Below, one piece after another: positions 406 through 64,000 of a stretch of DNA of 64,000 bases. The DNA comes from a phage, in the sequence record PZ452591.1. The stretch is one strand, 5' to 3'. The position numbers and the translations under genes are program-made. The notes below the pieces were generated by a model. It worked only from the letters and a program-made list of their open reading frames with translations. It had not been told where the DNA came from and did not search any database. Position 1 is the stretch's first letter. Each line of letters begins with the position of its first letter.

Positions 406-415
406 TATTTATTCC

Positions 416-1140: not shown

Positions 1141-1144
1141 TTAA

Positions 1145-1174: not shown

Positions 1175-1179
1175 TAAAA

Positions 1180-2654: not shown

Positions 2655-2658
2655 AAAT

Positions 2659-2947: not shown

Positions 2948-3036
2948 AGTATTCTCCTCAACTATTTTTAAAACCTAAAATACCGAAGTTTTTAAGATTG
3001 TTACGATAGAACTGCATCACATGTTCGTTATGGAAA

Positions 3037-3210: not shown

Positions 3211-3668
3211 TAGTAAGCCTGCAGGATGAATTTAAAGTTATCAGCCAACATACGGTTCATTTCTTCAAGTGTTTGATACTCAGAATGATGATTACGAGTA
3301 AACGCCAAAGCTAACTGACCTTTTCCAAATCCTGTCGTCAATGGTTTCATCTTAGAAGCAGGCAGATAAAATACTGTGTATGGAACATTGTTATTTGCAA
3401 TAGTACGCGCAAGCTGAGACCGACGCTGACGAATATGACTTAGAACCGCACTGAATCCTTGCTTAGAACGCTGATTACCTACATAAAATCGTGCGGACAC
3501 GCACGGATTACTAAATGGACGACCATCTAATTTACTCACTAAAAAGTAAAATCCAGGTTTAGATAAAATATCTTTATGCGGAGTTCCCAAAAACCACTCA
3601 CCGCCCTTGATTGTACCAATAACAGTAGCGCCTGCATTATTCAGATCAGTAACAGTCATATATTTCAT
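3210..3668 (-). CDS. ndd: Ndd nucleoid disruption protein
   Basis: Protein from [18 protein letters not shown]... recognised as T4 Ndd; GAGGAA SD before ATG at 3668; track start is upstream extension. Confidence 0.8.
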
Positions 3669-3728
3669 ATTAATTTCCTCTAAATTATTTTCTACTCCAA
3701 GGCCGCATGAATACACACGGCCATTAAA

Positions 3729-3944
3729 TTAATCGTCGCAGTCGACGCTCAATTCCCAGAATTCTTCTACGGTATAAGTTTCAGTATCATTTTCAATACA
3801 GAAACGTTCATTACTGTTATTTGCTAAAGTAGCATTAACTGTCGGTTTCTCGCTAGTGCTCTTAAGAGGTGAAATACGAATTAACTGATCACCGTTATCT
3901 AAACAAAAAATTTCACCAACTTTTACATCTTTAAAAATTTTCAT
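3729..3944 (-). CDS. hypothetical protein (71 aa)
   Basis: ORF with GAGGTG SD. Confidence 0.5.
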   Translation of the reverse strand: MKIFKDVKVGEIFCLDNGDQLIRISPLKSTSEKPTVNATLANNSNERFCIENDTETYTVEEFWELSVDCDD

Positions 3945-3952
3945 AATTCACC

Positions 3953-4060
3953 TCAAGGAGTATAAAATCCAAATGCAGTTGTTGACCATCCCATCCAATA
4001 TGGAAAATTTGCACCAATGTAAAACATAAGAATATAAAACCAACCGCTCAGCAAATTCAT
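3953..4060 (-). CDS. small membrane protein (35 aa)
   Basis: ATG overlaps upstream TGA (ATGA); MNLLSGWFYILMFYIGANFPYWMGW... Confidence 0.35.
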   Translation of the reverse strand: MNLLSGWFYILMFYIGANFPYWMGWSTTAFGFYTP

Positions 4061-4257
4061 CATTTTACACCGTTCCAAATTGTTTCAACCACGGATTTTA
4101 AACCATTTTGATGAATATCCATTCCGACTACCGTCATCAAATAAATTCCAACTACAACTGAACCTAAGGCAAAAATCAGCATGAAAATGAATAAAGCCGG
4201 AAAAATATTATCGAAAAACCATTCAATAAATGTAAAAGCACTGCGTTTACGCTTCAT
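4060..4257 (-). CDS. small membrane protein (65 aa)
   Basis: GAGG SD before ATG at 4257; hydrophobic core; track start extended. Confidence 0.5.
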   Translation of the reverse strand: MKRKRSAFTFIEWFFDNIFPALFIFMLIFALGSVVVGIYLMTVVGMDIHQNGLKSVVETIWNGVK

Positions 4258-4264
4258 ATTTTCC

Positions 4265-4378
4265 TCACATAAATCCAAAGTAAGCGTTTAATACATCAAT
4301 CATTAAAACGATTGGGAATATACTCAAAACTATTAGTATTATAACTACATTCCATATAGCTTTAACAATCTTTTTCAT
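4265..4378 (-). CDS. small membrane protein (37 aa)
   Basis: GGAGGAACAG SD then ATG at 4378 (MKKIVKAIWNVVIILIVLSIF...); track N-terminus reads through promoter cassette. Confidence 0.4.
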   Translation of the reverse strand: MKKIVKAIWNVVIILIVLSIFPIVLMIDVLNAYFGFM

Positions 4379-4381
4379 TTT

Positions 4382-4455
4382 CTGTTCCTCCGTAGTTGAT
4401 AGTTGTATAGTACCACAGAGGAACAGTCTTGTAAACAACTTTTTTTTTAAAAATA
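4382..4455 (-). promoter_or_regulatory. early promoter cassette with flanking 9-bp inverted repeat (PeSL-like); -35 GTTTAC at 4431-4436
   Basis: Inverted repeat CTGTTCCTC 4382-4390 / GAGGAACAG 4418-4426 brackets the -10; A/T UP tract 4441-4450. Confidence 0.5.
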
Positions 4456-4545
4456 TTCGTAATAAATGTGAATACCAACTACTACCGCTGAAACTTGCAC
4501 AACCCACCACGCACAAGCAATAAGTACAGAATTCAAAATTTTCAT
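4447..4545 (-). CDS. possible small membrane protein (32 aa)
   Basis: GAGG SD, ATG 4543-4545; MKILNSVLIACAWWVVQVSAVVVGIHIYYEYF; 3' end overlaps promoter. Confidence 0.25.
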   Translation of the reverse strand: MKILNSVLIACAWWVVQVSAVVVGIHIYYEYF

Positions 4546-4628
4546 AATAACCTCATCACAAAAGTAAATGTTAAACAAATTACTGGAATACTAATTAACC
4601 AAACAAAACACCACCACAATGAACTCAT
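4542..4628 (-). CDS. possible small membrane protein (28 aa)
   Basis: ATGA overlaps at both ends; MSSLWWCFVWLISIPVICLTFTFVMRLL. Confidence 0.3.
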   Translation of the reverse strand: MSSLWWCFVWLISIPVICLTFTFVMRLL

Positions 4629-4888
4629 AGTTCAATCTCAACGATTTTCATTTCATTACTATTAATAGCCGCTTTAAGACTATCTGAAAGAATTACATTC
4701 CAGTGGTCATTCATATGACCATTAACTAAGCGTGTAATTTCTTCAGGAGTTGAAAAATAAGGCTGATCAGACTCCCAATGCGATAATCCTAAGCGAGTAT
4801 AAATCATGCCTTCATCATCGCTAGAATATTCAACTGACACAAACTCATCAGTTATTTTATGCTTAGCATAATAAAATTTAAATTTCAT
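4625..4888 (-). CDS. hypothetical protein (87 aa)
   Basis: GGAGAG SD then ATG at 4888 (MKFKFYYAKHKITDEF...); track extension is promoter read-through. Confidence 0.5.
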   Translation of the reverse strand: MKFKFYYAKHKITDEFVSVEYSSDDEGMIYTRLGLSHWESDQPYFSTPEEITRLVNGHMNDHWNVILSDSLKAAINSNEMKIVEIEL

Positions 4889-4914
4889 TTTACTCTCCAA
4901 ATCCGTATCAGTTG

Positions 4915-4972
4915 ATAGTTGTATAGTACCACGGTCCTTGTGGTATGTAAACCGTTTTGTGAAATTTTTTAA
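4915..4972 (-). promoter_or_regulatory. early promoter cassette (-35 GTTTAC at 4947-4952)
   Basis: Conserved cassette core TCAGTTGATAGTTGTATAGTACCAC plus A/T UP element. Confidence 0.45.
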
Positions 4973-5526
4973 ATGGAAAGATACCATCCGTTGTAGTTGC
5001 TTTTTCTTACAACCTTACGAAGGTCTTCTCTGTCACCGATGAACTTCGGAGTGTACTGGATGACACCTGGATGAATTTCTTTAGTGTTGAATATAATTAT
5101 ACAGTCAGCGACTTGATGATTTAGAATAGGCCCTAGATTTATTCCAGAACCATATGGATACTCTCCGCTGCATCCTGTTGTTACAGAAATCCAACGTGAG
5201 TCAGTTTGATGTGTCTTAACTTCTACACGAAGCCCACAGTATTTTGGATGCGCTAATACATCCCATGCATATGTGTACGGATCATCGACATCTTCTTGGC
5301 CTTTATTGACATATCCGCTTAGCCAATCTGCCACAAAAAACTCTGCGTACACAGCGATACGGCATCTTTCGATAACTTCTGCTTTATCCTGGTTCGGGTT
5401 TTGTTTTAAAGAGTATCTTACTGTATCAGCAATTTTGACCTTCATTTCACTAGTCAAGTCACTGTTCGATAGGGTAAATGTCGGAATCTGAAATAGTCTC
5501 TGTAAACCCGGATTCGTTTTCTGCAT
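4969..5526 (-). CDS. denB: DenB endonuclease IV (185 aa)
   Basis: Position between ndd and rIIB and length match T4 DenB; sequence recognised. Confidence 0.85.
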   Translation of the reverse strand: MQKTNPGLQRLFQIPTFTLSNSDLTSEMKVKIADTVRYSLKQNPNQDKAEVIERCRIAVYAEFFVADWLSGYVNKGQEDVDDPYTYAWDVLAHPKYCGLRVEVKTHQTDSRWISVTTGCSGEYPYGSGINLGPILNHQVADCIIIFNTKEIHPGVIQYTPKFIGDREDLRKVVRKSNYNGWYLSI

Positions 5527-5581
5527 TTAAACTTTCCTTTTATGTCTGAATCACTGGTATTCATATAATAAATCATAATTT

Positions 5582-5607
5582 CTCTTAAAACAAAAGGGCC
5601 GAAGCCC
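5582..5607 (-). terminator. CUUCGG-type tetraloop hairpin plus U-run terminator
   Basis: GGGC-CGAA-GCCC 5596-5607 (UUCG loop on minus RNA), then UUUUGUUUU. Confidence 0.5.
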
Positions 5608-5612
5608 TTATT

Positions 5613-5807
5613 TTATTTGAATTGTGCAATTCTTTTCTCTAGACATTCAGCATAAGATTTCATTGAGATAAACTGCGAAAGTAACAGTTCTTGCTCAACT
5701 GCATTAACTGTTAGAAACTTTGCGCTTTCTAAAAATTTGCTCAGTGCATTAATTTTGAGCATTAATTGATCGTATTCTTCTTTTACTCGTGCTTGATAAC
5801 CTAACAT
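5613..5807 (-). CDS. hypothetical protein (64 aa) between rIIB and denB
   Basis: ORF with AAGGAAAA SD. Confidence 0.5.
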   Translation of the reverse strand: MLGYQARVKEEYDQLMLKINALSKFLESAKFLTVNAVEQELLLSQFISMKSYAECLEKRIAQFK

Positions 5808-17304: not shown

Positions 17305-18051
17305 TTATCCTCGGATAAGTTTAAAAATTGAACAATTTAGCGGATATCCTCTTTTCAGTTTAAGTTTATCAATAAAAGACAAGTTTTGATACCGCTCTAC
17401 ACCTTGAATAATTTTATCACACATATCATATTGCATTTCTGCTTCTGACAACTTTTTCACAATTTTCCAATCCGAGCCTTTAAGAAGAACGTTCAATTTA
17501 ACAACTTCAGCGCCTTCTGCTATGCGAGAACCATCAATACGAGCTTTAAGTGCTATAATCCTCAGCTTAATGTCAGATGTCTGTTTTGATTTAGAAAGCT
17601 GAGAAATGTGTTCAATTCGGTTTTCACGTTTTTTCTGTATAGCTTTAATTTGATTATAAGTCTTTTTGATTTTAGTCCATTTCTTTTCATCTAAATTTAG
17701 TTTATGAACTTTTTTCGCAGATGAACGACCAATTCGCAAAGCAAATAAATCACGCTTTTCAATCAACTCCTCTAAAGTATAATCAGAACGAAATGTATTA
17801 TACTTTTTCTTTACTGCAATAACATTCCCTTTAATGTATCCAACGTTATTATCAAAACGTTCTAATGATAATTTCTCTCCTTCAATACGATTATCAAAAG
17901 GTTCTCCCGAGTAAGCACAAACTTTTTGATCTAAAATGTTCTTAATGTAATTGAAGTCTAAGTTAAAATCTTTAGAACGTCTTTTTGCAGATGCCTGAGT
18001 ATGCTCTAGACGACGTTTAATTTTACGAATTTGGTTATTAGACAGCTTCAT
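17305..18051 (-). CDS. srd: Srd-like protein (248 aa)
   Basis: Position between dda and modA; size matches T4 Srd. Confidence 0.5.
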   Translation of the reverse strand: MKLSNNQIRKIKRRLEHTQASAKRRSKDFNLDFNYIKNILDQKVCAYSGEPFDNRIEGEKLSLERFDNNVGYIKGNVIAVKKKYNTFRSDYTLEELIEKRDLFALRIGRSSAKKVHKLNLDEKKWTKIKKTYNQIKAIQKKRENRIEHISQLSKSKQTSDIKLRIIALKARIDGSRIAEGAEVVKLNVLLKGSDWKIVKKLSEAEMQYDMCDKIIQGVERYQNLSFIDKLKLKRGYPLNCSIFKLIRG

Positions 18052-18174: not shown

Positions 18175-18777
18175 TTATAGATTAAATCCTTCAAAATCAA
18201 GAGTATAGATAGTATATGTTGAATACTTTTTGTACTCATATCTATCTGCAATTCTAAATACACTTCCAGCTGGTATCATTACTTCTTGTTCATCTGAAAC
18301 TAATTCCATATTACGATAACGATGACTATCCGGAAACTTAAAGTTTGGATTGTATTCTTTACAGCGTAGAGCTTTTATAGCATACTCCTGGAAATTGAAT
18401 ACCATAGGAGCTTTGAATTCAAAAATAACTTGTGTGTTATACTCTAAACCGGAAGCAAAATGTAGAGCTATATTTTTATCATATGAAGCTGATACGACTT
18501 TATCAAATGTAATAATATCAATTCCTTGATTTAATACTTGCTTAGTCTCAGCTGGAACACCTCTCCAAAGAGGTTTATCGTTTGGTTCCAAACGAGATTT
18601 GATTATTTCATTTAACCAAGTATGGTCATCTGGTTTATTAGTAATACAATGAATTAAAAGTTCAATTTCAGATAAATTAAACCCTTCAGAAAGTAATTCT
18701 TCACGAATAGAAGCACGCACCGATGCATCCATTGATTTTATTTTAAAATCTTTTAGTTGCATTACTGAGTATTTCAT
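18175..18777 (-). CDS. modA: ModA ADP-ribosyltransferase (200 aa)
   Basis: Position and size match T4 ModA; paralogous to the adjacent gene. Confidence 0.8.
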   Translation of the reverse strand: MKYSVMQLKDFKIKSMDASVRASIREELLSEGFNLSEIELLIHCITNKPDDHTWLNEIIKSRLEPNDKPLWRGVPAETKQVLNQGIDIITFDKVVSASYDKNIALHFASGLEYNTQVIFEFKAPMVFNFQEYAIKALRCKEYNPNFKFPDSHRYRNMELVSDEQEVMIPAGSVFRIADRYEYKKYSTYTIYTLDFEGFNL

Positions 18778-19397
18778 TCAACTACCTCAATATCATAAAC
18801 TTTAAATGTTCCAAATGAATCGTGTAATTTTTCTTTTGAAATAGAAGTTATTCTATACTTTCCAATTGGAATCATCCATTCTTGTTCACGCACAATCATC
18901 ATTAAGTTATCAGTACGCTCTGAATCTAGCCCATCAGTATCTTCATATGTATACTTAAACTCAGTATTAGGAGAAGAAAGTATAATATCGCTGATATGGT
19001 CAGAATAATTAAAAGCTTTATCAGTTTTTAAGCGAAGTATTATTTTAGTAAAATATTCAGCATAAGAAAAAGAACATGCTGTGAGCAAACTAGTAGTAAA
19101 TGAATCTACCCTGTTCGTTGAAAACACTTCTCCAACTTGTAAATCTTTAATGAGTTCTTTTGTCGATTTTGATATACCACGATATAACTGATAAGGTGAT
19201 TTAGTTAAATGCTTTTTAATGATTTTATTCAACTGCCGATGAAGAGCTTCATTCTTTTTGGCTTCCATACATTGCCAAAGAACGGATTGTTCAAAGTCAG
19301 TAAATTTTTCACAGACTTTTTTATACATATCATATTGAAAATCAACGCTTTCAGCTTTTATAGATAACTGTTCAACATCTGCAAGATTAATAATCAT
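18774..19397 (-). CDS. modB: ModB ADP-ribosyltransferase (207 aa)
   Basis: Position and size match T4 ModB. Confidence 0.75.
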   Translation of the reverse strand: MIINLADVEQLSIKAESVDFQYDMYKKVCEKFTDFEQSVLWQCMEAKKNEALHRQLNKIIKKHLTKSPYQLYRGISKSTKELIKDLQVGEVFSTNRVDSFTTSLLTACSFSYAEYFTKIILRLKTDKAFNYSDHISDIILSSPNTEFKYTYEDTDGLDSERTDNLMMIVREQEWMIPIGKYRITSISKEKLHDSFGTFKVYDIEVVE

Positions 19398-23908: not shown

Positions 23909-24535
23909 TTAACCTCTATTCATAAAAGCATTAAAAATTTGGTCATCAATAGAAACATTTACTTTAGACTGTTTTTCAGATGGCAATTCATATCCACATA
24001 TTACAATTTTATAATCAATATCAAAATACACAGAAGCAATATGATTAATGATATTTTCAGTAAAGTCTAAATCAACATCAATATCTTTTTGACCAAAGCC
24101 CAAAGGATAAATAATGCGAGTAATTCGATTATCTTTAACAAAGATTCCACCGACATACTCTGTACTGCGTTTAAAGTCTACACGCCGACGAAATGAAAAA
24201 TATTCAGGCTCTTTATGAGCTCGGCTCATAGGGCACAACGAATAACTAGAATAAGAGATGTCAAATCCTACGCCTTCAATATGAACTAAATTGTCATGAT
24301 TAAACCAATTATAATCATATGCCAAGTCCATTAGATTGTCATACGTGAAAGGCACCGGATTAACATCATTGGTCACAAGCATATAATTAGCAACTGCTAT
24401 AATTTCATTATTTTTAACGAATACAAACCGTGATTGATGCGAATGGCCTGGACCTGCGTTTTCACGATTAATGATATAACACTGGGCACCTTTATATTTG
24501 TACGTGTCTTTACACTTGTGCATTTGATAAAGCAT
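23909..24535 (-). CDS. hypothetical protein (208 aa), 61.1 position
   Basis: TAATG overlap with sp. Confidence 0.55.
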   Translation of the reverse strand: MLYQMHKCKDTYKYKGAQCYIINRENAGPGHSHQSRFVFVKNNEIIAVANYMLVTNDVNPVPFTYDNLMDLAYDYNWFNHDNLVHIEGVGFDISYSSYSLCPMSRAHKEPEYFSFRRRVDFKRSTEYVGGIFVKDNRITRIIYPLGFGQKDIDVDLDFTENIINHIASVYFDIDYKIVICGYELPSEKQSKVNVSIDDQIFNAFMNRG

Positions 24536-53683: not shown

Positions 53684-54574
53684 TTAAGATTTAAGTAAAT
53701 CAACAATTTTAATTAACTTTTCACGCTCAGATTTAGCTTTACTACTCAGTCCAGATAGTCTGAAAATTTCATCATCATATTGTTGAATAGAAATATTCAG
53801 CTCTTCAATCTGTTTATTAAAATAATCAATTTGTTCAGAATGTTTTTCGTTACTACGAAATGGTACAGGTTTTGTAGGCAATTTAGTTGAATTGGATTCA
53901 TCCGGGCGATAAATTAAAATACAACTTGAACCAATCGGACATTTAGCACCAGATGAATATTCTAACGTTCCAGCTTCTTTTAAAACTTCAAAAGCTAAAC
54001 AGAGATGATGCCCCATATTAACATAATCAGTAGAGCGAGCTCTGACGTAATAATCATCTCCACGAGTGCTAAATTTAAAGCATTTAAGGTCTTCTGTATT
54101 ATTAGTTTTAAAAATCATTTGTTTATCTAGACCTTTAGCCAATCGAGCGCCTAATGCTAATAATCGTCGTTGATTTTCCCACAAATCCGCAATCATTTGG
54201 TCAAATGATAATTTCGGCATTAGTCGACCATAAAGGTCATATCCTTTATTATAATTGCGAAGGATTTCACTCGCGTTAATACGAGACAATGCTCCAATTT
54301 TATTAAGGGCTTTCATAATACGATTAGATAAACTCATTCCAGATCCGTTTGTTCGCTGCAAATGTTTATCTAATCCAAACCCAATATCAACTTTAAATTT
54401 ATCTAAAATTTCAGCATGAACATCTCTGTCAATAACATTCAAATCCAAAGTTGTGTTAAATCTATGAAAAAATTTATCTGGCTCTCCACGACGAAATACA
54501 GTCCATTCATTCATCATTTTTTTATTAACTAAAGATTTAATTACTGCATTGACATTATTAATTACGACTGACAT
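53684..54574 (-). CDS. coiled-coil-tailed protein, paralog 4 of 4 (296 aa)
   Basis: GAGGAAAAT SD then ATG at 54574; track start is TTG. Confidence 0.6.
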   Translation of the reverse strand: MSVVINNVNAVIKSLVNKKMMNEWTVFRRGEPDKFFHRFNTTLDLNVIDRDVHAEILDKFKVDIGFGLDKHLQRTNGSGMSLSNRIMKALNKIGALSRINASEILRNYNKGYDLYGRLMPKLSFDQMIADLWENQRRLLALGARLAKGLDKQMIFKTNNTEDLKCFKFSTRGDDYYVRARSTDYVNMGHHLCLAFEVLKEAGTLEYSSGAKCPIGSSCILIYRPDESNSTKLPTKPVPFRSNEKHSEQIDYFNKQIEELNISIQQYDDEIFRLSGLSSKAKSEREKLIKIVDLLKS

Positions 54575-54581
54575 ATTTTCC

Positions 54582-54989
54582 TCACTCAATTTCAATTTTA
54601 CTAAATATATAGAATAAGATGGAACAGACTATATAAGCACCACACACAGATTGAACTAATACCATTCCAAAGAACCAAATAATATTATCAAACAGTGTCT
54701 GTTTTACGTCGAAAGGACGTAAACTTACAGTAATATTATCGCCTTTTTCTATTGATGAATACATCTCTGGTGAAATATATTCGCTAAATCTATAACCGTC
54801 TTTGAGTTCATATACGGCAATAAACGATAAACTAGACCCCTTTCCTTGAGTTCCTGTAAGGGTATTAACTACAGTAACATCATAATCTTTATAATGCATA
54901 TAATCATTAATTGCGTAATAACCATATGCAACTACTACACATAAACAACATATCAATAAATTCAATCTTTTAATTATCAACTGTTTCAT
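54582..54989 (-). CDS. membrane protein (135 aa)
   Basis: N- and C-terminal hydrophobic segments. Confidence 0.55.
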   Translation of the reverse strand: MKQLIIKRLNLLICCLCVVVAYGYYAINDYMHYKDYDVTVVNTLTGTQGKGSSLSFIAVYELKDGYRFSEYISPEMYSSIEKGDNITVSLRPFDVKQTLFDNIIWFFGMVLVQSVCGAYIVCSILFYIFSKIEIE

Positions 54990-55044
54990 AATAATCTCAA
55001 TTAAAAGGGCTTAGAACCATTATACCATCCTTGATATAAAGCGG

Positions 55045-55572
55045 TTATGCGAGTACCGTCTTTAACCGTTCTTCAAACTTCCGAAGAGTATTTTGGCGTT
55101 CAGCTCTTTGCTTTTTGTAAGTTTCAATACGCTCTGAAATGAGAGTGTATCGTTCATTTACTGATTCTTTCATAAAATCAGGAATTTCACGAGAAGCTTT
55201 AATCTCGTCAAATTTATCAATAACAGCTTGCTCTTCAGCAATTAAGTTATCATACATTAAAATATCTTTCTTGATGAACTCAATATCTTCTTGAGTTACG
55301 CGAGATAATTTAGATGCTTTATCCTTTTTGTACTGTTCGTTAGTATCACGAGACCAGTGTAATGTACGATTTTTATTCGTATTTTTGTAAATTTCTACAA
55401 TACCGATCTCATCAATAATAACGATCCAATTCCAACGGGATTTGTAAATTTGTCCTCCATCAACAGTGATTTCACCTCCGATTGAGATGTCATTAAAGAA
55501 CTTGCTTTGTGCTTCAGATTTAAATTTACCATCGTTGTAATTTACCAGGTTGAAAATATCTTTAGCGTTCAT
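55045..55572 (-). CDS. hypothetical protein (175 aa)
   Basis: GGAGGAACAC SD then ATG at 55572; track N-terminus reads through promoter cassette. Confidence 0.55.
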   Translation of the reverse strand: MNAKDIFNLVNYNDGKFKSEAQSKFFNDISIGGEITVDGGQIYKSRWNWIVIIDEIGIVEIYKNTNKNRTLHWSRDTNEQYKKDKASKLSRVTQEDIEFIKKDILMYDNLIAEEQAVIDKFDEIKASREIPDFMKESVNERYTLISERIETYKKQRAERQNTLRKFEERLKTVLA

Positions 55573-55575
55573 TTT

Positions 55576-55640
55576 GTGTTCCTCCGTAGTTGATAGTTGT
55601 ATAGTACCACAGAGGAACAGTCTTGTAAACAACTAAAAGA
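55576..55640 (-). promoter_or_regulatory. early promoter cassette with flanking inverted repeat (PeSL-like); -35 GTTTAC 55625-55630
   Basis: TGTTCCTC 55577-55584 / GAGGAACA 55612-55619 bracket the -10. Confidence 0.5.
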
Positions 55641-55947
55641 AACTTCTTTCACAATTTTTTCCACTGAACCACGCGCTCACTGCTTTCTTAGTCTCAGGAG
55701 CAGTGTTATCCATAAACCATTCAAAAGCAGCCTTTTTATGATTCTGGAGGGCTTCTCGGGCTTTAATCTGCTCACGGTCTATTAACACTAACATATGAGC
55801 CTTTCTTGTCACCAGGGGCTTCTTATGATTTTTTGAATATTCCCAATCATTTGTCCATCGCATCGTTGTTGCGAATTGAAGTACAGCTTCTTTAATCTTA
55901 GTTTCGTAAATTTCACGAGCCTTTGAGTATAACACCATTACCTCCAT
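55633..55947 (-). CDS. hypothetical protein (104 aa)
   Basis: ORF; no clear SD. Confidence 0.45.
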   Translation of the reverse strand: MEVMVLYSKAREIYETKIKEAVLQFATTMRWTNDWEYSKNHKKPLVTRKAHMLVLIDREQIKAREALQNHKKAAFEWFMDNTAPETKKAVSAWFSGKNCERSFF

Positions 55948-56036
55948 TTACCAGTTTAATTCTAGTCATCTTTTTAATGGCAGTCCATATAATCTATTTC
56001 TGAACTGCCTTTTTGTCATAGAAGTCCTCTTATGAA

Positions 56037-57005
56037 TTATTTCAGAAGAGTAACCTCAGCGATTTCTTCCCAACCGTTTTTGTCGGTCATAATAAAGTCA
56101 GCAAGATAAAGAGCAGTACGCAGTGAAACATTGCGTAAACGATTAACATTGACTTTCATCCATGATAATGCTTTATAAGTTTCTTCATCAGAAAGACCGC
56201 GCTTTTGCATCATGTCGGTTGAAAGAATAACATCTTCAACCCTGACCATAATTTCTTCATTAGTGTGAACACCCAAATCTAAATAAACTGAGCGGGACAC
56301 TAATGCTTGTAAATGTGGAGCAAGTTTAGTACCACGGTCTAATTCGCGGTCAATGTCAACGTTTGTGATAAAAACAATCGTTCCTTTAAATTCAAACTCA
56401 CGCTCAATGCCTTTTTCTTCTAAGTAAGAAGATGCAGTGCTCCAGCAGACTTTACGGGTCTCTCCAGTGTCCAGAGCAGCTTTCAGAAGATTAAGAATGT
56501 CCATATCAGAGAAAACATCCACATCATCAATCAAAAGGACAGAATTCTCTTCACGATTATTCCAAAGCTGTTCATAAAGACCGATACCAGAGATTTTACC
56601 ATTAATGCTTTTATATTCAATGTATCCAATATCATTTGCTTTATTTAAAGCTTTATCCAAAGAATACGTTTTACCAATACCTGCTGCTCCCGAGATAATT
56701 AATGAACGAATGTTTCCGTTAATAATACCATTCGTCATCATTCCCATAACATTAAATCTTTTATTAATGCGGGTTTTCATATCTTCATATGATTCTTTAA
56801 CTTCTTCAACTTTTACACCATCATATGAAATGTCTGATTTGTAAACCCAAACACCGCGACGCTTACCGTCAATTTCAACAAAAACTTTACCATCTCCTTG
56901 TGCATCCACCGGAGCATTATCTGGGAACCATTCACCTAAGAGCTCAAAAGTTCCAGAGATTTCTTTACCGAAGTAGATACCCTTATTGATAGTTACAGTT
57001 TTCAT
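56037..57005 (-). CDS. P-loop ATPase (AAA-like), 322 aa
   Basis: Walker A GAAGIGKT, Walker B VLLIDDVD; GGAGAATAAA SD then ATG at 57005. Confidence 0.65.
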   Translation of the reverse strand: MKTVTINKGIYFGKEISGTFELLGEWFPDNAPVDAQGDGKVFVEIDGKRRGVWVYKSDISYDGVKVEEVKESYEDMKTRINKRFNVMGMMTNGIINGNIRSLIISGAAGIGKTYSLDKALNKANDIGYIEYKSINGKISGIGLYEQLWNNREENSVLLIDDVDVFSDMDILNLLKAALDTGETRKVCWSTASSYLEEKGIEREFEFKGTIVFITNVDIDRELDRGTKLAPHLQALVSRSVYLDLGVHTNEEIMVRVEDVILSTDMMQKRGLSDEETYKALSWMKVNVNRLRNVSLRTALYLADFIMTDKNGWEEIAEVTLLK

Positions 57006-57009
57006 TTTA

Positions 57010-57075
57010 TTCTCCAAATCCATATCAGTTGATAGTTGTATAGTACCATAAAGCTTTATGCTTGTAAACCGTTTT
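57010..57075 (-). promoter_or_regulatory. early promoter cassette (-35 GTTTAC 57064-57069)
   Basis: Conserved core CAGTTGATAGTTGTATAGTACCA plus long A/T UP tract. Confidence 0.5.
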
Positions 57076-57095
57076 GTGAAAAAAAAAATTTAAAA

Positions 57096-57120
57096 TAAAA
57101 AGGGAGCCCGAAGGCTCCCT
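57096..57120 (-). terminator. CUUCGG-type hairpin terminator after nucleotidyltransferase gene
   Basis: AGGGAGCC-CGAA-GGCTCCCT then UUUUUAUUUU on minus RNA. Confidence 0.6.
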
Positions 57121-57121
57121 A

Positions 57122-58135
57122 TCATTTATAATAACTTCGATGGTTTTCAAGATAGACTTTCTCAAGGAAGTCATCCCAAAAACCCATGTCCACTTTTTGC
57201 TGCATACCGTTCTTAGAAGCTTCAGTAGATGCTGCTTCTACTTGATCGACCACATCTTCCAAAAACTCTTGAACGGTTTTAAATGGATGTTTACCCAACT
57301 TCACGTCGAGAATAAATGGAGCGTCTTGAAGTGGATAAACCAAGTCGCCAGTTTTGTAAATTTCCAATAGTTGAAGTCCACCACGACAGGCATGGCTCAG
57401 AGCTTTCCAGTCAATGCCTTCGTTGGCTTCGGCCTTACGAGCGCGTTCACCATATTCAGCATCTAATTTGTTCAGTGACTGCTTAATCTCAATAAGAGAA
57501 AGCGTTGTCTGATATTTACGACCCAACACAGTGTAGAACGTTTGTGGGCCTGTTTTCTCATGATTATGGAACACCCATTCACAGAATTCATTTTCTGGAA
57601 GACGATGCTTAATATCTTCAACTTTAGTGCGACGCTGCTTAATAGAACCATCTTCTTGGTAATCAACCCATTGCTCGGGGATTTGATTAACTACTTTCAA
57701 TACATCACGTAATGCAGCCAAACGAGAACCCTTGACACCGTATTTAGAAGCTTGCTTGCGAACATATCCTAAATATGATTTCATGTTAGTCGTATAAAAA
57801 CGAGAACGGTTGTCTTGAATAAACTTCCACACGTCAGGCAAATCAGATTTAACCACTAGTTCAGGTGGAGTGTGAAGCATATCTAATGCTACAGTTTCAC
57901 CATCTGCTGCTAATTTAAAGAAATACTTAAGACTATACAATTCGTGGTCAATATCATCTTTAGTGTTTTTAGATGATGTGTTGTTAGTGTTTTTACTCAT
58001 GTGCTCTTTAACGTTTCCGATAAGAATATCGCGAGCAGGAGGAACAAAAATTTCTTTAAAATCTACATCAGATTCTGGGGTAGAAGTTCCATAAAGATGA
58101 CTACCAAAATAGCTTTTCATTACTGTTTTCATCAT
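57122..58135 (-). CDS. Pol-beta-superfamily nucleotidyltransferase-like protein (337 aa)
   Basis: N-terminal GS-x9-SDVD-F motif (GSHLYGTSTPESDVDF); ATGA overlap with upstream membrane-protein gene. Confidence 0.6.
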   Translation of the reverse strand: MMKTVMKSYFGSHLYGTSTPESDVDFKEIFVPPARDILIGNVKEHMSKNTNNTSSKNTKDDIDHELYSLKYFFKLAADGETVALDMLHTPPELVVKSDLPDVWKFIQDNRSRFYTTNMKSYLGYVRKQASKYGVKGSRLAALRDVLKVVNQIPEQWVDYQEDGSIKQRRTKVEDIKHRLPENEFCEWVFHNHEKTGPQTFYTVLGRKYQTTLSLIEIKQSLNKLDAEYGERARKAEANEGIDWKALSHACRGGLQLLEIYKTGDLVYPLQDAPFILDVKLGKHPFKTVQEFLEDVVDQVEAASTEASKNGMQQKVDMGFWDDFLEKVYLENHRSYYK

Positions 58136-58593
58136 TCAGCCTTATATTCAATAACAGGACATACTTTAGCTTTACGAGCTTTTAAAAATTCAACGATAAC
58201 CGATTTCTTGGGTTGAATAGGAGGTAAACCTTTATACGCCCTATCAATATTTTCTACGTGTAAAGCATAATCCTTTTTCCATTTATAATCTTTATATTTT
58301 TCACGCAAATATGCAGGAATAACAAATGAACCGATAATAAGTAAAACAACCAAAAGCGCAAGTATAAATGCCGATGGAAGAAGAGTCCATAAACTACCGA
58401 AAATAAGCCAACGTTGTAGGCTTTCTGCACAAATAATTGTTAGCCCTACGAGTATAGCACATCCAAAAATAGAAACGAAAAATGTAGGAATGGCAATAGA
58501 CCAAAAATATGCGCATAATGTCTTGGGTCGTTGCCATTCATCGTTAAACAATTTGAATAATTTATAGTGCCAAGAGTTTTCATTAATAATCAT
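58132..58593 (-). CDS. membrane protein (153 aa)
   Basis: Three hydrophobic segments. Confidence 0.55.
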   Translation of the reverse strand: MIINENSWHYKLFKLFNDEWQRPKTLCAYFWSIAIPTFFVSIFGCAILVGLTIICAESLQRWLIFGSLWTLLPSAFILALLVVLLIIGSFVIPAYLREKYKDYKWKKDYALHVENIDRAYKGLPPIQPKKSVIVEFLKARKAKVCPVIEYKAE

Positions 58594-58595
58594 AA

Positions 58596-59117
58596 TTATC
58601 CTTTCATTGAAGGCGTAACGGTTGTTAAATACTTAATCATAGCTTCAGCTTCTGATTTTGACAATGAAATTTCTCCATTGTTTTGACGAATAGAAATAAA
58701 ATCCGGATGACGGTCACCACCAGCTTTTAAAACATACATATAAGTATCAACTTCGCCTTCAATATTTGAAATGATTGAAGCAGTTCCACATGAATGCGGT
58801 TTTTGATAAATCAATACAGCTTTTCTTCCACCGTTTGACTGTTCATAGGCTTTTAATACATCAAACAAATCAGTTCTTTTATCAATAGCTAAAATGTTAT
58901 TTTCATCTTCAATGTTAAATCCTTCGGATACTTCATAAAGTGTCACCCATAAATCGCCAATATCAATAACAGCATTTACGTTTCCACGGCTTTCAAGAGC
59001 ATGACAAATTTTCTTGATTTCGTCATAACTCATTTTAATAATATCATCTCCTTGAATAAGAAAGATGTCATTTTTAAATTCAACACGAATTAAACCACTT
59101 CCACTTGAAATAAACAT
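58596..59117 (-). CDS. hypothetical protein (173 aa), paralog of next gene
   Basis: GAGGAAAT SD; C-terminal similarity to 59124-59657. Confidence 0.5.
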   Translation of the reverse strand: MFISSGSGLIRVEFKNDIFLIQGDDIIKMSYDEIKKICHALESRGNVNAVIDIGDLWVTLYEVSEGFNIEDENNILAIDKRTDLFDVLKAYEQSNGGRKAVLIYQKPHSCGTASIISNIEGEVDTYMYVLKAGGDRHPDFISIRQNNGEISLSKSEAEAMIKYLTTVTPSMKG

Positions 59118-59123
59118 ATTTCC

Positions 59124-59657
59124 TCACTTTGAAATCATAGTTGGAATAACAGAATCAAGATAAGTCTTTAGCGCAATAGCTTCGTCTTTGGTAAATGTAA
59201 TGATATGTGATCGAAAATCGTCAATTTGGCGAATAGTTAAGACATCTCCCTCTTCATAACATTTTGATACATTTAAAAGAGTTTCATCATTCTGATTGCA
59301 AGCGTTAGTAATAATAGCATTGCAATTTTTGAGCCATTTTAAACTATGTTTTCTTTCATTAGAATAATAAAAATATTTAATCTTAGCTATAAAACTATCC
59401 CAATGGATAACTGATAAACACATTGACTCACTTTTAATATTAAATCCTGGGCATGAAGAATAAAAATGAATTTTGTGCTCATCATTGATGCTTACTATTT
59501 TATCAGTATAAGGATATTCAATTTGGGTTAAATGAATGATTTCACTAGGCGTAAAATATAGCATATCGTCTTCTTGCGTCAAACGATACATGTTATTTAC
59601 TTTTTCTATAGTCAATTCACCAAAAAGCGGACTAACTTCTAATACTAATCGTTTCAT
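59124..59657 (-). CDS. hypothetical protein (177 aa)
   Basis: ATG at 59657; track start is GTG. Confidence 0.5.
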   Translation of the reverse strand: MKRLVLEVSPLFGELTIEKVNNMYRLTQEDDMLYFTPSEIIHLTQIEYPYTDKIVSINDEHKIHFYSSCPGFNIKSESMCLSVIHWDSFIAKIKYFYYSNERKHSLKWLKNCNAIITNACNQNDETLLNVSKCYEEGDVLTIRQIDDFRSHIITFTKDEAIALKTYLDSVIPTMISK

Positions 59658-59683
59658 ATTGATTCTCTTCGACTCACTCACAA

Positions 59684-59788
59684 TTACATACTCCTTTGAA
59701 TAATATCAATAATGTTGTTCACCAGATTATAAGTAAACATTGGGTAATTATATTGAATCATCACATACACAACAAACAAAACTTTCAT
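59684..59788 (-). CDS. small hydrophobic protein (34 aa)
   Basis: AAGGAGAAGA SD then ATG at 59788; directly downstream of promoter. Confidence 0.35.
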   Translation of the reverse strand: MKVLFVVYVMIQYNYPMFTYNLVNNIIDIIQRSM

Positions 59789-59809
59789 TCTCTTCTCCTT
59801 GGCAGTTGA

Positions 59810-59860
59810 CAAGATTACTATACCATAACCTTGCCAACTTGTAAACCATTAAATGACGTT
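59810..59860 (-). promoter_or_regulatory. early promoter (-35 GTTTAC 59841-59846, -10 TATAGT)
   Basis: Read directly. Confidence 0.45.
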
Positions 59861-59995
59861 TTCAATAAAATTCTGAAGCTTTGTGTGAGCATCAACCATG
59901 ATTTTCATTTCTTCCTCTGCGAAAGCTGTACCTCTTTCCCGAGCAGAATACTCATAGTCAGAAACTGCATTAGCATATTCTTCAATTAGCTTCAT
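59849..59995 (-). CDS. possible small protein (48 aa)
   Basis: Weak SD at first ATG; internal ATG has GAGGAAGAA SD. Confidence 0.3.
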   Translation of the reverse strand: MKLIEEYANAVSDYEYSARERGTAFAEEEMKIMVDAHTKLQNFIENVI

Positions 59996-60011
59996 TAAAA
60001 ACATCTGCTTT

Positions 60012-60206
60012 TCAGTTTTCATTATTCCACCTAATCATTTCAAGATATTGAACTAACTTAGCTTTAGATTTATCCAAATCCTTTTTAGCTGCTTCTATAC
60101 CGTCGTATGAATATCCTTCACAATGCTCAACTGCTAATTGATATGAATCTATTTCAATATCACGTGCTAATTTAATGATTTTTTCAAACTGTTCGCGTGT
60201 TAGCAT
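60012..60206 (-). CDS. hypothetical protein (64 aa)
   Basis: ORF. Confidence 0.5.
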   Translation of the reverse strand: MLTREQFEKIIKLARDIEIDSYQLAVEHCEGYSYDGIEAAKKDLDKSKAKLVQYLEMIRWNNEN

Positions 60207-60208
60207 AA

Positions 60209-60412
60209 TTAAACTCTCGTATTATGATCGATAATTTCATCAAGAAACATATCTAACGCTTCTAAAGCATTATCAACTTTAGCTTCAAGTTCATCAATGC
60301 CTTTATTTGCAATGCCTGACGAAAACCAAGCAAAGTCACTAAGTTCCTCGTCTGCTTTACGAATTAAAGCTACCAATTCTTTAATCTTATCCGCTTGTTC
60401 GATACTAATCAT
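60209..60412 (-). CDS. hypothetical protein (67 aa)
   Basis: ATG at 60412 (TAATG overlap with next gene); track start is GTG. Confidence 0.45.
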   Translation of the reverse strand: MISIEQADKIKELVALIRKADEELSDFAWFSSGIANKGIDELEAKVDNALEALDMFLDEIIDHNTRV

Positions 60413-60600
60413 TATTCCACCACATATGAAAGAGAGAATATTGCACACGCCATGTGAGTTGCAACTTCATCACACATATTATAACGTTTCTTAAGAAGTT
60501 CTACAAGTTCTTCACTAGTAACTTCATCCATGTCGACGAAAAAATCACCATTAATGATGACGTAGATATTTCCTTCTTGATTAAGTGCTTCAATTTTCAT
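60412..60600 (-). CDS. hypothetical protein (62 aa)
   Basis: GAGGAGAACATC SD then ATG at 60600; track extension reads through promoter. Confidence 0.5.
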
Positions 60601-60609
60601 GATGTTCTC

Positions 60610-60660
60610 CTCTTTATCCGATAGTTGTATAGTACCACAGCTCAAACGGAAAGTAAACCG
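60610..60660 (-). promoter_or_regulatory. early promoter cassette (-35 GTTTAC 60653-60658)
   Basis: Conserved core GATAGTTGTATAGTACCAC. Confidence 0.45.
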
Positions 60661-60665
60661 GTAAA

Positions 60666-60690
60666 ATGAAAAAAGTCTCCCGAAGGAGAC
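60666..60690 (-). terminator. CUUCGG-type hairpin terminator
   Basis: GTCTCC-CGAA-GGAGAC then U6 on minus RNA. Confidence 0.55.
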
Positions 60691-60695
60691 TAATG

Positions 60696-61082
60696 TTATT
60701 CGAGGGAAAGAAGATATTTACTCTGGTAAAACATTCCAGTAATATCATCTATCGTGCTTTGGATGGCTGGAGGCATTTCTTTATAAATGCTGTTAGATTG
60801 GTCTAGTATGCGATCAATCATTTTAATTGTGTCGGTAGGAAGTTTACTGGCATCTGGAATTGAAGGTGTGTATTTTCTACCAGAATACCCCAAATATTGC
60901 TCACCAAATTTATCAATCAAATCTGGCAACTCGGAGAAAATAAAATCGTATGCTTTGTGTCTAGCATAATTTTTAGTTTCAAAATGTGCAGAATGAAAAT
61001 AAGCTTGTGCAGCCATTAATAAACCTAAGTATTCATCTGCCTTTGAAGGTTTTCCACTTTGTGAAAAGTCGCTGAATTTCAT
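60696..61082 (-). CDS. hypothetical protein (128 aa) adjacent to rI
   Basis: ORF. Confidence 0.5.
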
Positions 61083-61372
61083 TCAGTCTCCAATTTAATG
61101 TTCATAATTCTAGCGTATGATTGTGCCATCTCCGCGCCTCGTTCTATACATTCAAAATCAGAAGAGCACGGGTCATTTTTATAGGTCGTTCTCATAAAAC
61201 TATAGAATTGTTCAGACGATTCTACGCTTTTATTTTCAAAAAGCATATAAACGTGCCTAATACCAGATTCCATAAATTTATCAAAATGAGGATCGACATT
61301 CGCTTCAATCGATGGAGATAAAACAAATGACAATCCTAGCATGGCAAATAGTGCCGTTGCTTTTAAGGCCAT
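61079..61372 (-). CDS. rI: RI lysis-inhibition antiholin (97 aa)
   Basis: Protein recognised as T4 RI; signal-anchor N-terminus. Confidence 0.85.
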   Translation of the reverse strand: MALKATALFAMLGLSFVLSPSIEANVDPHFDKFMESGIRHVYMLFENKSVESSEQFYSFMRTTYKNDPCSSDFECIERGAEMAQSYARIMNIKLETE

Positions 61373-61384
61373 AAAGGCCTCCTA

Positions 61385-61597
61385 TCATTTTTGTCCTGTA
61401 TTTACTTTATGCCGATGCACGGCCTTAACTTTATCAAGGTATTTTTCAAAATTTCGCAATCTAGTATAGTCTGCCGGAGATTGGTTGAGTGATACTTCTC
61501 GACGCAAAGCTGAAATGATATTTCCAACTTCCCTACGAATTTCATCTAATTGAAGAACAGTAAGATTGCGAAGTTGCTTTTCAGTTAATTGTAGCAT
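61385..61597 (-). CDS. hypothetical protein (70 aa)
   Basis: ORF between tk and rI. Confidence 0.5.
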
Positions 61598-61639
61598 ATA
61601 TACCCCTTTAGTTAGATAAACCTATTTATAACTTTTGCA

Positions 61640-62221
61640 CTAACCGAGCTTTTTAGTTAATTCATTCCAATGTTTTCTACACAAGGAAACATAAATTTCA
61701 TCACCAATACAGATTTGATTACCTTCTTTAACTGGTGTTCCATCTTCCATTAATCGAGCTGTCATAATCGCTTTTTTGCCGCAATGACAAACTGCCTTTA
61801 GTTCAATAAGTTTATCTGCAATCGCTAAAAGTTCTTTAGAACCTTCAAACAATTTTCCAGCGAAATCAGTCCTTAATCCATAAGCCATAACAGGAACATT
61901 ATATGTATCAACAATTCGGCTCAATTGATGCACCTGTTCAGTTTTTAAAAACTGGGCTTCATCTACAAATACGCAATGAATATCTTTTTGTGCTTCAGCC
62001 CATTTATAGAACTCGAAAATATCCATATCATCTGTAATAATATTTGCTTCCTGCCTAATTCCAATGCGAGAAACGACTTCACAGACAGAATCGCGAGTAT
62101 CAATAGCAGGCTTAAGAACTAATACACTCATTCCACGTTCTTTATAATTGTGCGCAGCAGTCAAAAGAGAAGCAGATTTTCCAGCATTCATTGCTGCATA
62201 AGTAAAAATTAAACTCGCCAT
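61640..62221 (-). CDS. tk: thymidine kinase (193 aa)
   Basis: P-loop NAGKSAS; C-terminal zinc-binding CHCGKKA...C..C; matches T4 Tk. Confidence 0.9.
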   Translation of the reverse strand: MASLIFTYAAMNAGKSASLLTAAHNYKERGMSVLVLKPAIDTRDSVCEVVSRIGIRQEANIITDDMDIFEFYKWAEAQKDIHCVFVDEAQFLKTEQVHQLSRIVDTYNVPVMAYGLRTDFAGKLFEGSKELLAIADKLIELKAVCHCGKKAIMTARLMEDGTPVKEGNQICIGDEIYVSLCRKHWNELTKKLG

Positions 62222-62222
62222 C

Positions 62223-62411
62223 TTAGTCCTTAGTTAAATTTTCTAAATATGTTTCTAAATCATTTTCAGCTTTATCGATAGATTTTACTAATTCGTAATA
62301 TGTTTCGGCATCTCCATAATCAGAAGATAATTCAAAAGACAAATCCTTTTCTAAACTAATAATTTCACCAACTAAAAATAATATTTCGTTCTTTTGTTCG
62401 CGAGTAATCAT
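62223..62411 (-). CDS. hypothetical acidic protein (62 aa), paralog of next gene
   Basis: ATGA overlap; similar to 62408-62593. Confidence 0.5.
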   Translation of the reverse strand: MITREQKNEILFLVGEIISLEKDLSFELSSDYGDAETYYELVKSIDKAENDLETYLENLTKD

Positions 62412-62593
62412 AAGGAATTTATATAATCAATGAGTTCTTGTTCTTTATTATCGAATTCTTTAGAAAGTTCTTCGTACTCGTTTGCACTAAAAGGACCGCA
62501 TTCATTACAAACTTTTTCCAATTCACTATTTTTATCCATAACTTCGTGGATAAGAGAAAAGAGTTTATCTTTTTGTTCTTTGCTTAAACTCAT
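62408..62593 (-). CDS. hypothetical acidic protein (61 aa)
   Basis: ORF. Confidence 0.5.
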   Translation of the reverse strand: MSLSKEQKDKLFSLIHEVMDKNSELEKVCNECGPFSANEYEELSKEFDNKEQELIDYINSL

Positions 62594-62763
62594 ATATTAA
62601 TTTCCAAAAGTTTTAAAATAATTCGCTTTTGCTTAAATATTTCCACAGTTAAATGATCAGTATCTTTTTGACCAATTCCAATGGCAAAACCTTTATTAAC
62701 AGCGAGTTCAATTAAATTATCAAGTTCACGTAACACTTCATATTGTAACTCAGAACTATTCAT
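62590..62763 (-). CDS. small protein (57 aa)
   Basis: ATGA overlaps at both ends; hand-translated MNSSELQYEVLRELDNLIELAVNKGFAIGIGQKD... Confidence 0.4.
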   Translation of the reverse strand: MNSSELQYEVLRELDNLIELAVNKGFAIGIGQKDTDHLTVEIFKQKRIILKLLEINI

Positions 62764-62972
62764 TTTGGTTTACCTTCTTTAACGAAATCTGGATAAGGAT
62801 AAAATCCCGAATAAAATCCTTCACCTTTATGATTGATGCATCCTTTATTCGAACAATAGCACCAATAATCGAAATCACAAGCCATTTCATCGTTGCATAA
62901 AGCAAAAACAACCGGCCATTTACACTTTTCACAGTGGGCATTTTTAAGAATACTAGTTTGGCTCATAACCAT
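62760..62972 (-). CDS. Cys-rich putative zinc-binding protein (70 aa)
   Basis: HCEKCKW...C..C...CYC..GC; ATGA overlaps. Confidence 0.5.
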   Translation of the reverse strand: MVMSQTSILKNAHCEKCKWPVVFALCNDEMACDFDYWCYCSNKGCINHKGEGFYSGFYPYPDFVKEGKPK

Positions 62973-63175
62973 GTCACCTTTAAGCAGTATTCTTCTACAT
63001 GCTGTTTACGACCTTTCTTATCAATAAAGGTATATTCAACGAATGTTCCAATGTAGTCTTTATCTACATCATGTGGACTATTAATTGGACATTTAGTACG
63101 GCAAATGCGTTCCCATTGACGAATAATTACTGCCTTATTCTTTGGGTCATACGGATGTGGATAATGTATATTCAT
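62963..63175 (-). CDS. hypothetical protein (70 aa)
   Basis: ATG at 63175 overlapping upstream TGA; track start is TTG. Confidence 0.45.
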   Translation of the reverse strand: MNIHYPHPYDPKNKAVIIRQWERICRTKCPINSPHDVDKDYIGTFVEYTFIDKKGRKQHVEEYCLKVTWL

Positions 63176-63639
63176 AATAATGGTTCCCAATCAACAATCA
63201 CAATTTCTAATTTAGAGGAATATGTATCTAAAATCCCCTCAATAATATCCCAGTTCCCTTTACCTATGCCTGCACCAATCCTAGGCATATAGATTGTAGG
63301 TTTAATTAGTTTATTTTCACCAAACTCATTTAATTCTAACATACAATTCATTAAAGCGGAATACTCAAAATTTGGCCCTGGTTGAAATTGAGTATAAAGA
63401 TTAAAGCAGTAAGCTTTATGAGTCCTAAAGTATTTTTCATAGACTGAATAAGAACCAAGTTTAGTTACATCACCCCATTCAGTCTGTAATTTATCAGCTT
63501 CCAAAATTTTAGGGAAAGCTTTAGTTAATTGACCTGCGACTCCAGCTTTCATCGTGTGAAAACAATTACATCCATGCGCAATATTTTTACCTTCAGCGAA
63601 AAGGGCGACAATATCGCCCTTGATATATTTTACAATCAT
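63172..63639 (-). CDS. macro-domain-like protein (possible ADP-ribose binding or processing), 155 aa
   Basis: Three macro-like motifs: GDIVALFAEGKNIAHGCNC, MKAGVAGQL, PRIGAGIGKGNW; assignment by eye only. Confidence 0.45.
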   Translation of the reverse strand: MIVKYIKGDIVALFAEGKNIAHGCNCFHTMKAGVAGQLTKAFPKILEADKLQTEWGDVTKLGSYSVYEKYFRTHKAYCFNLYTQFQPGPNFEYSALMNCMLELNEFGENKLIKPTIYMPRIGAGIGKGNWDIIEGILDTYSSKLEIVIVDWEPLL

Positions 63640-63983
63640 CTAGTACTCAATCCTCGATTATAAGAATCTACCAAACGGTCAACCATTGAATGACAAGCGG
63701 CTTTATCTTTCTCCTCCGCAACTGAACATTCTAAGGTATTCCACTTTTTAGCATATCGTTTTAATAATGTATCGTTTTTGTATCTACTTGATTTATCTCT
63801 TTCTCCGTCTTTATATGCATATATTAATTTCTGTGCAAATTCAGCTTGACATGCTTTATTTTTCCCACAATAATCTGCCGCAGTGCGGTTTACATATTCT
63901 CTAATTTCAGTATATGATGTATCTGCTGACGCAGAAGCAGAAAATGAAATTAATCCTATACATAAAACCAAAATTTTAGTCAT
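63636..63983 (-). CDS. secreted/periplasmic protein with signal peptide (115 aa)
   Basis: MTKILVLCIGLISFSASASA signal; four Cys. Confidence 0.5.
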   Translation of the reverse strand: MTKILVLCIGLISFSASASADTSYTEIREYVNRTAADYCGKNKACQAEFAQKLIYAYKDGERDKSSRYKNDTLLKRYAKKWNTLECSVAEEKDKAACHSMVDRLVDSYNRGLSTR

Positions 63984-64000
63984 TTACTATTTCCAAAAGT

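Follow-up and report, generated by a model that had tools for sequence, protein, structure and literature searches.

What does the small gene lying between vs and tk.3 do for its phage, and on whose ADP-ribose marks would its product act? The window analysed here is a 64,000-nucleotide stretch of phage DNA (PZ452591.1). Close to its end, a minus-strand open reading frame with an ATG start (63172..63639) forms the coding sequence of a single 155-residue protein. The initial annotation, made from the letters alone, described this product as macro-fold-like and, noting that the same DNA encodes the ADP-ribosyltransferases ModA and ModB, suggested that it could take part in an ADP-ribosylation tug-of-war with the host.

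Over the 2 kb surrounding the open reading frame, identity was 98.8% with phage T6 and 98.1% with T2, and on this basis the window is assigned to Tequatrovirus. The encoded protein was 100% identical to T6 Tk.4 and 98.7% identical to Tk.4 of T4 and T2. Relative to the T4 protein, it is of equal length and retains 153 of 155 residues, the two differing residues being adjacent. The order vs, tk.4, tk.3 is kept in the annotations of T4, T2 and T6. By sequence, then, the gene is identified as the T6-type allele of T-even tk.4, recently renamed adfM (anti-DarT factor, macrodomain). It is annotated in T4, between vs and tk.3, as a 'conserved hypothetical protein', and in other records as 'phosphatase' or 'macro domain containing protein'.

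The upstream gene, vs, encodes the valyl-tRNA synthetase modifier (63636..63983, minus strand; PHROG 1256, 1.7e-39) and is syntenic with its counterparts in T4, T2 and T6. Downstream lies the small gene tk.3 (62963..63175, minus strand), whose listed open reading frame is matched by PHROG 2008 from residue 6 onward. The TGA stop of vs and the ATG of tk.4 share an ATGA overlap (63636-63639), as do the stop of tk.4 and the ATG of tk.3 (63172-63175), so that all three genes lie close-packed on the same strand. These stop/start overlaps suggest translational coupling along vs-tk.4-tk.3. The cluster is presumably among the T4 genes expressed before DNA replication. A scan of 61000-64000 for sigma-70 promoters and terminators returned 12 sites against 13.8 expected from shuffled sequence, and was uninformative on expression. 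T4 Tk.4, the protein studied as AdfM (bioRxiv 10.1101/2025.11.20.689424), is the ortholog, with the same position and the same overlapping stop and start codons. Further downstream, between tk.3 and tk.2, the window carries two extra small open reading frames on the minus strand (62590-62972), of 70 residues (62760-62972; PHROG 2306) and 57 residues (62590-62763; PHROG 3452). Both are missing from the T4 annotation and found in T2 and T6; the names given to them in the T6 RefSeq record, 'tail assembly protein' and 'rI antiholin', look mis-transferred.

Several lines of evidence showed that the protein is a genuine, free-standing macrodomain. The Pfam Macro family PF01661 matched residues 22-132 (25 bits against a gathering cut-off of 22, E = 1.9e-5), and the same match is precomputed for many homologs. 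A single-sequence search of solved structures returned BT1257 (2e-8), yeast Poa1p (3e-5) and TARG1 (3e-3). When a profile built from 100 homologs was used instead, the matches were BT1257 (4e-19), TARG1 (4e-16), SCO6735 (5e-15), Poa1p (3e-14) and Mycobacterium tuberculosis DarG (5e-14). The AlphaFold2 model (mean pLDDT 96.4, pTM 0.91) has the three-layer alpha/beta/alpha fold with a central mixed sheet that is seen in solved macrodomains, and its top Foldseek ranks were TARG1, Poa1p, BT1257 and DarG. The nearest neighbours in both structure and sequence are members of the ALC1-like class, not MacroD, viral or PARG types. From the profile neighbours and the Foldseek ranking, the protein is therefore placed in the TARG1/DarG/Poa1p/SCO6735 ('ALC1-like') class. 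The fold proposed in the initial annotation is thus borne out by family match, model and structural neighbours, and structure prediction, which it had named as a check, returned a macro fold. Its three macro-like motifs were located at residues 8-26, 30-38 and 119-130.

Residue conservation was counted in 100 homologs of the window protein. The resulting family signature reads H22-G-C-N25-C, M-G-A-G33-x-A35, Y82-T-Q84 and P119-x-I-G-A-G124-I-A-G-G-D-W130. The H-G-C-N-C motif (codons 22-26; 63562..63576, minus strand) has H22 in 95% of members and N25 and C26 in 99% each; N25 aligns with N23 of the PhiKZ macrodomain AdfM and H22 with His23 of Poa1p. A predicted phosphate-binding loop, M-K-A-G-V-A (codons 30-35; 63535..63552, minus strand), corresponds to the family consensus M-G-A-G-I-A, in which G33 and A35 are invariant and position 31 is Gly in 86% and Lys in 4% of members. 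The predicted second ADP-ribose-binding loop, P-R-I-G-A-G-I-G-K-G-N-W (codons 119-130; 63250..63285, minus strand), has P119, I121, G122 and G124 invariant and W130 in 97%. In Tequatrovirus this loop departs from the family consensus, with K127 in place of G and N129 in place of D. Of the two glycine-rich loops, the second is intact as P-x-I-G-A-G-I-G-K-G; in the first, G33 is invariant and, in this allele, Lys takes the place of the opening Gly of M-G-x-G.

The Y-T-Q motif (codons 82-84; 63388..63396, minus strand) has Y82 and Q84 invariant in 100/100 members. Gln84 stands in the column that the catalytic lysine occupies in TARG1 (K84), DarG (K80) and PhiKZ AdfM (K78). In profile alignments Q84 fell on TARG1 Lys84 and the BT1257 Gln, and also on Lys78 of PhiKZ gp104; equivalence with residues of DarG and SCO6735 was drawn through the TARG1 and BT1257 alignments together with the published structural alignment (PMC9411070). 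TARG1 Asp125 aligns with G126. The span from Q84 to Y93 is 10 residues in Tk.4, as in TARG1, compared with 16 in BT1257 and 13 in most bacterial Tk.4 homologs.

The window and T4 alleles of tk.4 differ at 16 nucleotides, 11 of them in codons 28-35. These 11 substitutions are packed into 22 nt (63535-63556) and change G31S32, as found in T4 and T2, to K31A32, as found in the window and T6, within the M-G-x-G binding loop. The patch over the active-site loop looks like a short mosaic or gene-conversion tract. Besides Gly, position 31 of the family also accommodates Lys (seen too in a 92%-identical relative), Ala, Asn and Asp; the K31/A32 variant is for this reason probably tolerated. It may be as active as the T4 allele. 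The DarTG2 phenotype described below was measured for the T4 allele only, the window and T6 allele being known here by sequence. Our literature coverage, which was incomplete, yielded no data on the DarTG2 resistance of T6 itself or of the K31/A32 allele.

In a preprint of November 2025, a transposon library of T4 was screened on a DarTG2-expressing host, and tk.4 was the single significant hit; a clean tk.4 knockout became DarTG2-sensitive (bioRxiv 10.1101/2025.11.20.689424). The authors saw a structural likeness to the DarG macrodomain, renamed the gene adfM, and inferred, though did not demonstrate, that Tk.4 removes ADP-ribose from DNA (bioRxiv 10.1101/2025.11.20.689424). T4 lacking both adfA and adfN had been found to stay DarTG2-resistant (PMC11825919), and this earlier puzzle is therefore answered by the tk.4 knockout result. 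The T4 evidence is genetic and comes from one preprint (bioRxiv 10.1101/2025.11.20.689424), in which we saw neither complementation nor a catalytic mutant of tk.4; we found no publication in which any Tk.4 protein had been assayed biochemically. Assays have been reported for two related types of macrodomain. A PhiKZ protein, gp104, independently named AdfM, strips DarT2-made ADP-ribose from a TNTC oligonucleotide in vitro, and its N23A mutant shows reduced activity (PMC13309987). SCO6735 and BT1257 carry Gln85 where DarG has Lys80 and TARG1 has Lys84; SCO6735 cleaves DarT-made thymidine-ADP-ribose DNA faster than DarG, and its Q85A mutant is inactive (PMC9411070).

Other anti-DarT genes belong to the same phage group. 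By tblastn, an ortholog of T4 gp61.2 was found in the window at about 23909..24535 (minus strand; the stop position is provisional), with 98.6% identity over 208 residues. We take T4 gp61.2 to be AdfA. AdfA is an anti-DarTG counter-defence of RB69, of which a T4 variant has been described (PMC11825919). AdfN, which is T4 gene 30.3 and is reported for T-even phages, lies outside the window. The window would accordingly carry two anti-DarT genes, tk.4 and the gp61.2 ortholog, consistent with layered anti-DarT defences.

The sole PADLOC match of the window protein was DarG (1.1e-7), over the macrodomain part of DarG. Against the DarG equivalog NF048014 of NCBIfam it scored 25.1 bits where the cut-off is 250, matching profile positions 2-146 of 338. 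DarG2 of the DarTG2 systems of Thermus aquaticus and M. tuberculosis has a C-terminal DarT-binding domain, which the 155-residue Tk.4 lacks. The catalytic residue of T. aquaticus DarG is Lys80, whereas that of Tk.4 would be Gln84, present in 100/100 family members. DarG is also encoded beside a darT toxin gene, whereas the neighbours of Tk.4 are vs and tk.3, with no adjacent darT. The identification of Tk.4 as a DarG was rejected on these grounds of score, missing DarT-binding domain and missing darT neighbour.

PhiKZ gp104 is likewise a free-standing phage macrodomain that counters DarTG2, and its conserved Asn and M-G-A-G loop align with those of Tk.4. The overall likeness is slight: BLASTP gave E = 0.018 over 23 residues, and hhalign gave a probability of 96.5% at 19% identity. 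Moreover, gp104 has the DarG-type lysine, in P-T-K78, where Tk.4 has Y-T-Q84. A direct relationship was rejected, since the similarity is remote and the catalytic residue differs; the name AdfM therefore covers two separate lineages. SCO6735 of Streptomyces coelicolor and BT1257 of Bacteroides thetaiotaomicron, by contrast, are Gln-type ALC1-like macrodomains with Gln at the position of Tk.4 Q84, at about 25-29% identity. They differ from Tk.4 in an extended mobile loop, some 5 residues longer than in DarG and TARG1, which is absent from Tk.4, and BT1257 reads HICND where Tk.4 reads HGCNC.

The reading that we prefer, with a probability of roughly 70%, is that Tk.4/AdfM acts as an orphan macrodomain antitoxin against DarTG2, removing ADP-ribose from thymidine by Gln84 chemistry like that of SCO6735. 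In a host carrying DarTG2, the DarT2 toxin ADP-ribosylates thymidines of single-stranded phage DNA within TNTC motifs and thereby blocks replication. Tk.4 would most likely hold the ADP-ribose between its two glycine-rich loops and hydrolyse the ribose-thymine (C1''-N3) bond, restoring replicable DNA. Gln84 would probably replace the catalytic lysine of DarG and TARG1 and orient the distal ribose so that water can attack it, a mechanism proposed for SCO6735. The protein would do so as an antitoxin without the DarT-binding domain of DarG. For the window protein itself, we infer both the removal of thymidine-linked ADP-ribose and the role of Gln84. The T4 knockout phenotype concerns a host DNA-modifying toxin, and the mark erased is therefore most likely host-made and on phage DNA, not one placed by the phage on host proteins.

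How the family is distributed was examined in phages and bacteria. Homologs of the window protein occurred in 2,734 of 50,697 phage records; in bacteria, relatives at 35-43% identity numbered at least 502 loci, from Rhodobacterales, Desulfobacterales, Bacteroidota and further groups. Some 65 correctly called bacterial homologs retain HGCNC, YTQ and GAGxAGGDW. The HGCNC/YTQ Gln-type macrodomain is thus a widespread stand-alone bacterial gene, of whose cellular role we found no characterisation. No DarT2 homolog lay within 5 kb in the 80 bacterial homolog loci examined, nor did neighbour clustering reveal a conserved partner, the largest cluster covering 9 of the 80 loci and being housekeeping-like and lineage-limited. 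The idea that the bacterial homologs are DarG-like antitoxins was rejected on these two results. Three apparent bacterial homologs from metagenome-assembled genomes were also set aside, being really T4-like phage contigs binned into such genomes. These contigs (JBOFGC010000414, JBOFQK010000158 and JBOGAE010000741), filed as Bacilli, Culicoidibacterales and Cetobacterium, carry T4-type Rnl1, Pnkp, a Dda-like helicase, dCMP deaminase and a T4 spanin; in two of the three, the second gene downstream of RNA ligase 1 is the macrodomain gene.

Homologs were also found in Vibrio phage GRLPWR (gp179) and Acinetobacter phage Aci05 (gp051), between or beside the NARP1 genes Adps and Namat. They are 34% identical to the window protein (E about 5e-22), belong to the same PHROG family, and share with it the motifs HxCNC, M-G-x-G-I-A, Y-x-Q and G-x-G-L-A-G-G-D-W. 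Their records (loci 2632-5662 and 404-3974) call them merely 'hypothetical protein'. Adpp of Vibrio phage Gary, the macrodomain of this operon type, was shown in a preprint of January 2026 to be an ADP-ribose-1''-phosphate (ADPR-1''-P) phosphatase that lets NARP1 overcome aRES defence (bioRxiv 10.64898/2026.01.28.702374). Our comparison with Adpp was made only through the GRLPWR and Aci05 proteins, taken as Adpp orthologs. Judged by sequence, the closest relatives of Tk.4 with an implied function are these NARP1-operon macrodomains, probable phosphatases.

Could Tk.4 then be mainly an Adpp/Poa1p-type phosphatase, converting ADPR-1''-P to ADP-ribose? The substrate could come from RES-domain NAD+ phosphorylases, such as those of aRES defence, or as a by-product of RNA repair. 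PHROG 335, labelled 'phosphatase', matches the window protein at 1.4e-64, and yeast Poa1p is a neighbour in both sequence and structure, its His23 and Ser30 aligning with H22 and T29. To these points are added the NARP1-operon homologs just described and the proven activity of the Gary enzyme. Such an activity would be useful to NARP1 phages only together with NARP1, however, and a search of the window and of T6 64000-163999 at E ≤ 0.1 returned no Adps or Namat homolog, nor was any annotated in T6 53959-63959. Membership of Tk.4 in a NARP1 NAD+ reconstitution operon was rejected for this phage type on that result: Adpp genes lie between or beside Adps and Namat, whereas tk.4 has vs as its neighbour and belongs to a genome type that lacks NARP1. 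The phenotypes differ likewise, that of Tk.4 concerning DNA ADP-ribosylation and that of Adpp/NARP1 the reconstitution of NAD+. ADPR-1''-P has no part in DarTG2 toxicity and so cannot account for the T4 knockout phenotype. We consider a mainly phosphatase role distinctly less probable than the antitoxin reading, though deserving of some weight; phosphatase activity and DNA de-ADP-ribosylation are chemically alike and need not be mutually exclusive. It would be more surprising if Tk.4 neutralised DarT2 without catalysis, by binding the toxin or shielding ADP-ribosylated DNA. Catalytically dead SCO6735 Q85A, DarG K80A and TARG1 K84A still inhibit DarT in vitro (PMC9411070), which lends the idea some substance. 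Against it stand the missing DarG C-terminal domain, with the partial, low-scoring equivalog match, and the strict conservation of N25, G33, Q84, G122 and G124 in phage and bacterial homologs without a DarT neighbour, which points to selection for catalysis. A purely non-catalytic role is accordingly improbable.

The partners proposed in the initial annotation, ModA and ModB, are present where it placed them, at 18175-19397. Both belong to PHROG 832 and lie on the minus strand, modA at 18175-18777 (98.5% identity to its T4 counterpart) and modB at 18774-19397 (96.6%). Directly downstream of modA, a 248-residue open reading frame (17305-18051, minus strand) occupies the position of T4 srd and has the same span (747 nt). 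A reading built on this idea would have Tk.4 reverse or read the ADP-ribosylation or RNAylation of host proteins by the phage's own ModA, ModB or Alt. In its favour, modA and modB share the window with tk.4, T6 also has two Alt-like genes, and macrodomains are general binders and erasers of ADP-ribose. To our knowledge, the arginine-ADP-ribose linkage is cleaved by ARH/DraG-type hydrolases, and we know of no macrodomain that cleaves it. It is arginine residues that T4 Alt, ModA and ModB modify (PMC8120803), which weighs against this reading. Location does so too: the mod genes lie 44 kb from tk.4 without synteny, and tk.4 sits in a separate overlapping cluster with vs and tk.3. In addition, no mod-type transferase gene was seen in the phage homolog neighbourhoods inspected, homologs are common in phages and the bacterial loci counted above, and the known tk.4 phenotype concerns a host DNA-modifying toxin. 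Thus the tug-of-war itself stands as a conflict with the host, given the DarTG2 sensitivity of the T4 tk.4 knockout, while its link to ModA and ModB falls away as very unlikely. Least probable of all is a role as O-acetyl-ADP-ribose deacetylase or YmdB-like regulator of RNase III, which several database labels imply; JGI homologs are called 'O-acetyl-ADP-ribose deacetylase (regulator of RNase III)', and TARG1/OARD1 carries deacetylase activity in its name.

The anti-DarT role of tk.4/adfM is real and already known, having been published for T4, and is no new biology by itself. What is added here are the Gln-type catalytic position, the NARP1-operon relatives, the T6-type K31/A32 patch and the stand-alone bacterial homologs. 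From these we tentatively suggest, as a possibility that we hold to be rather less than even, that the T-even lineage is not a captured DarG and is unrelated to PhiKZ AdfM. Instead, it would be a branch of the Gln-type HGCNC/YTQ family, with one active site for both C1'' reactions and with K31/A32 and K127/N129 as adaptations to a DNA substrate. If so, hundreds of stand-alone bacterial genes and the Adpp-type macrodomains of NARP1 operons would belong to this family too, and a single active site would both remove ADP-ribose from thymidine in DNA and dephosphorylate ADPR-1''-P. On that view Tk.4 would act against two unrelated defences, DarTG2 and, with NARP1 present, RES-type NAD+ phosphorolysis, and the K31/A32 patch and the Tequatrovirus-specific K127/N129 would be possible adaptations toward the DNA substrate.

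For the biology of these phages, the orphan antitoxin reading of Tk.4/AdfM would mean that the phage uses a bare macrodomain against a host toxin. It would also mean that T-even phages stack counter-measures against DNA ADP-ribosylation, namely AdfA, AdfN and AdfM. The labels 'phosphatase' and 'hypothetical protein' that tk.4 bears in phage records could be updated to reflect this.
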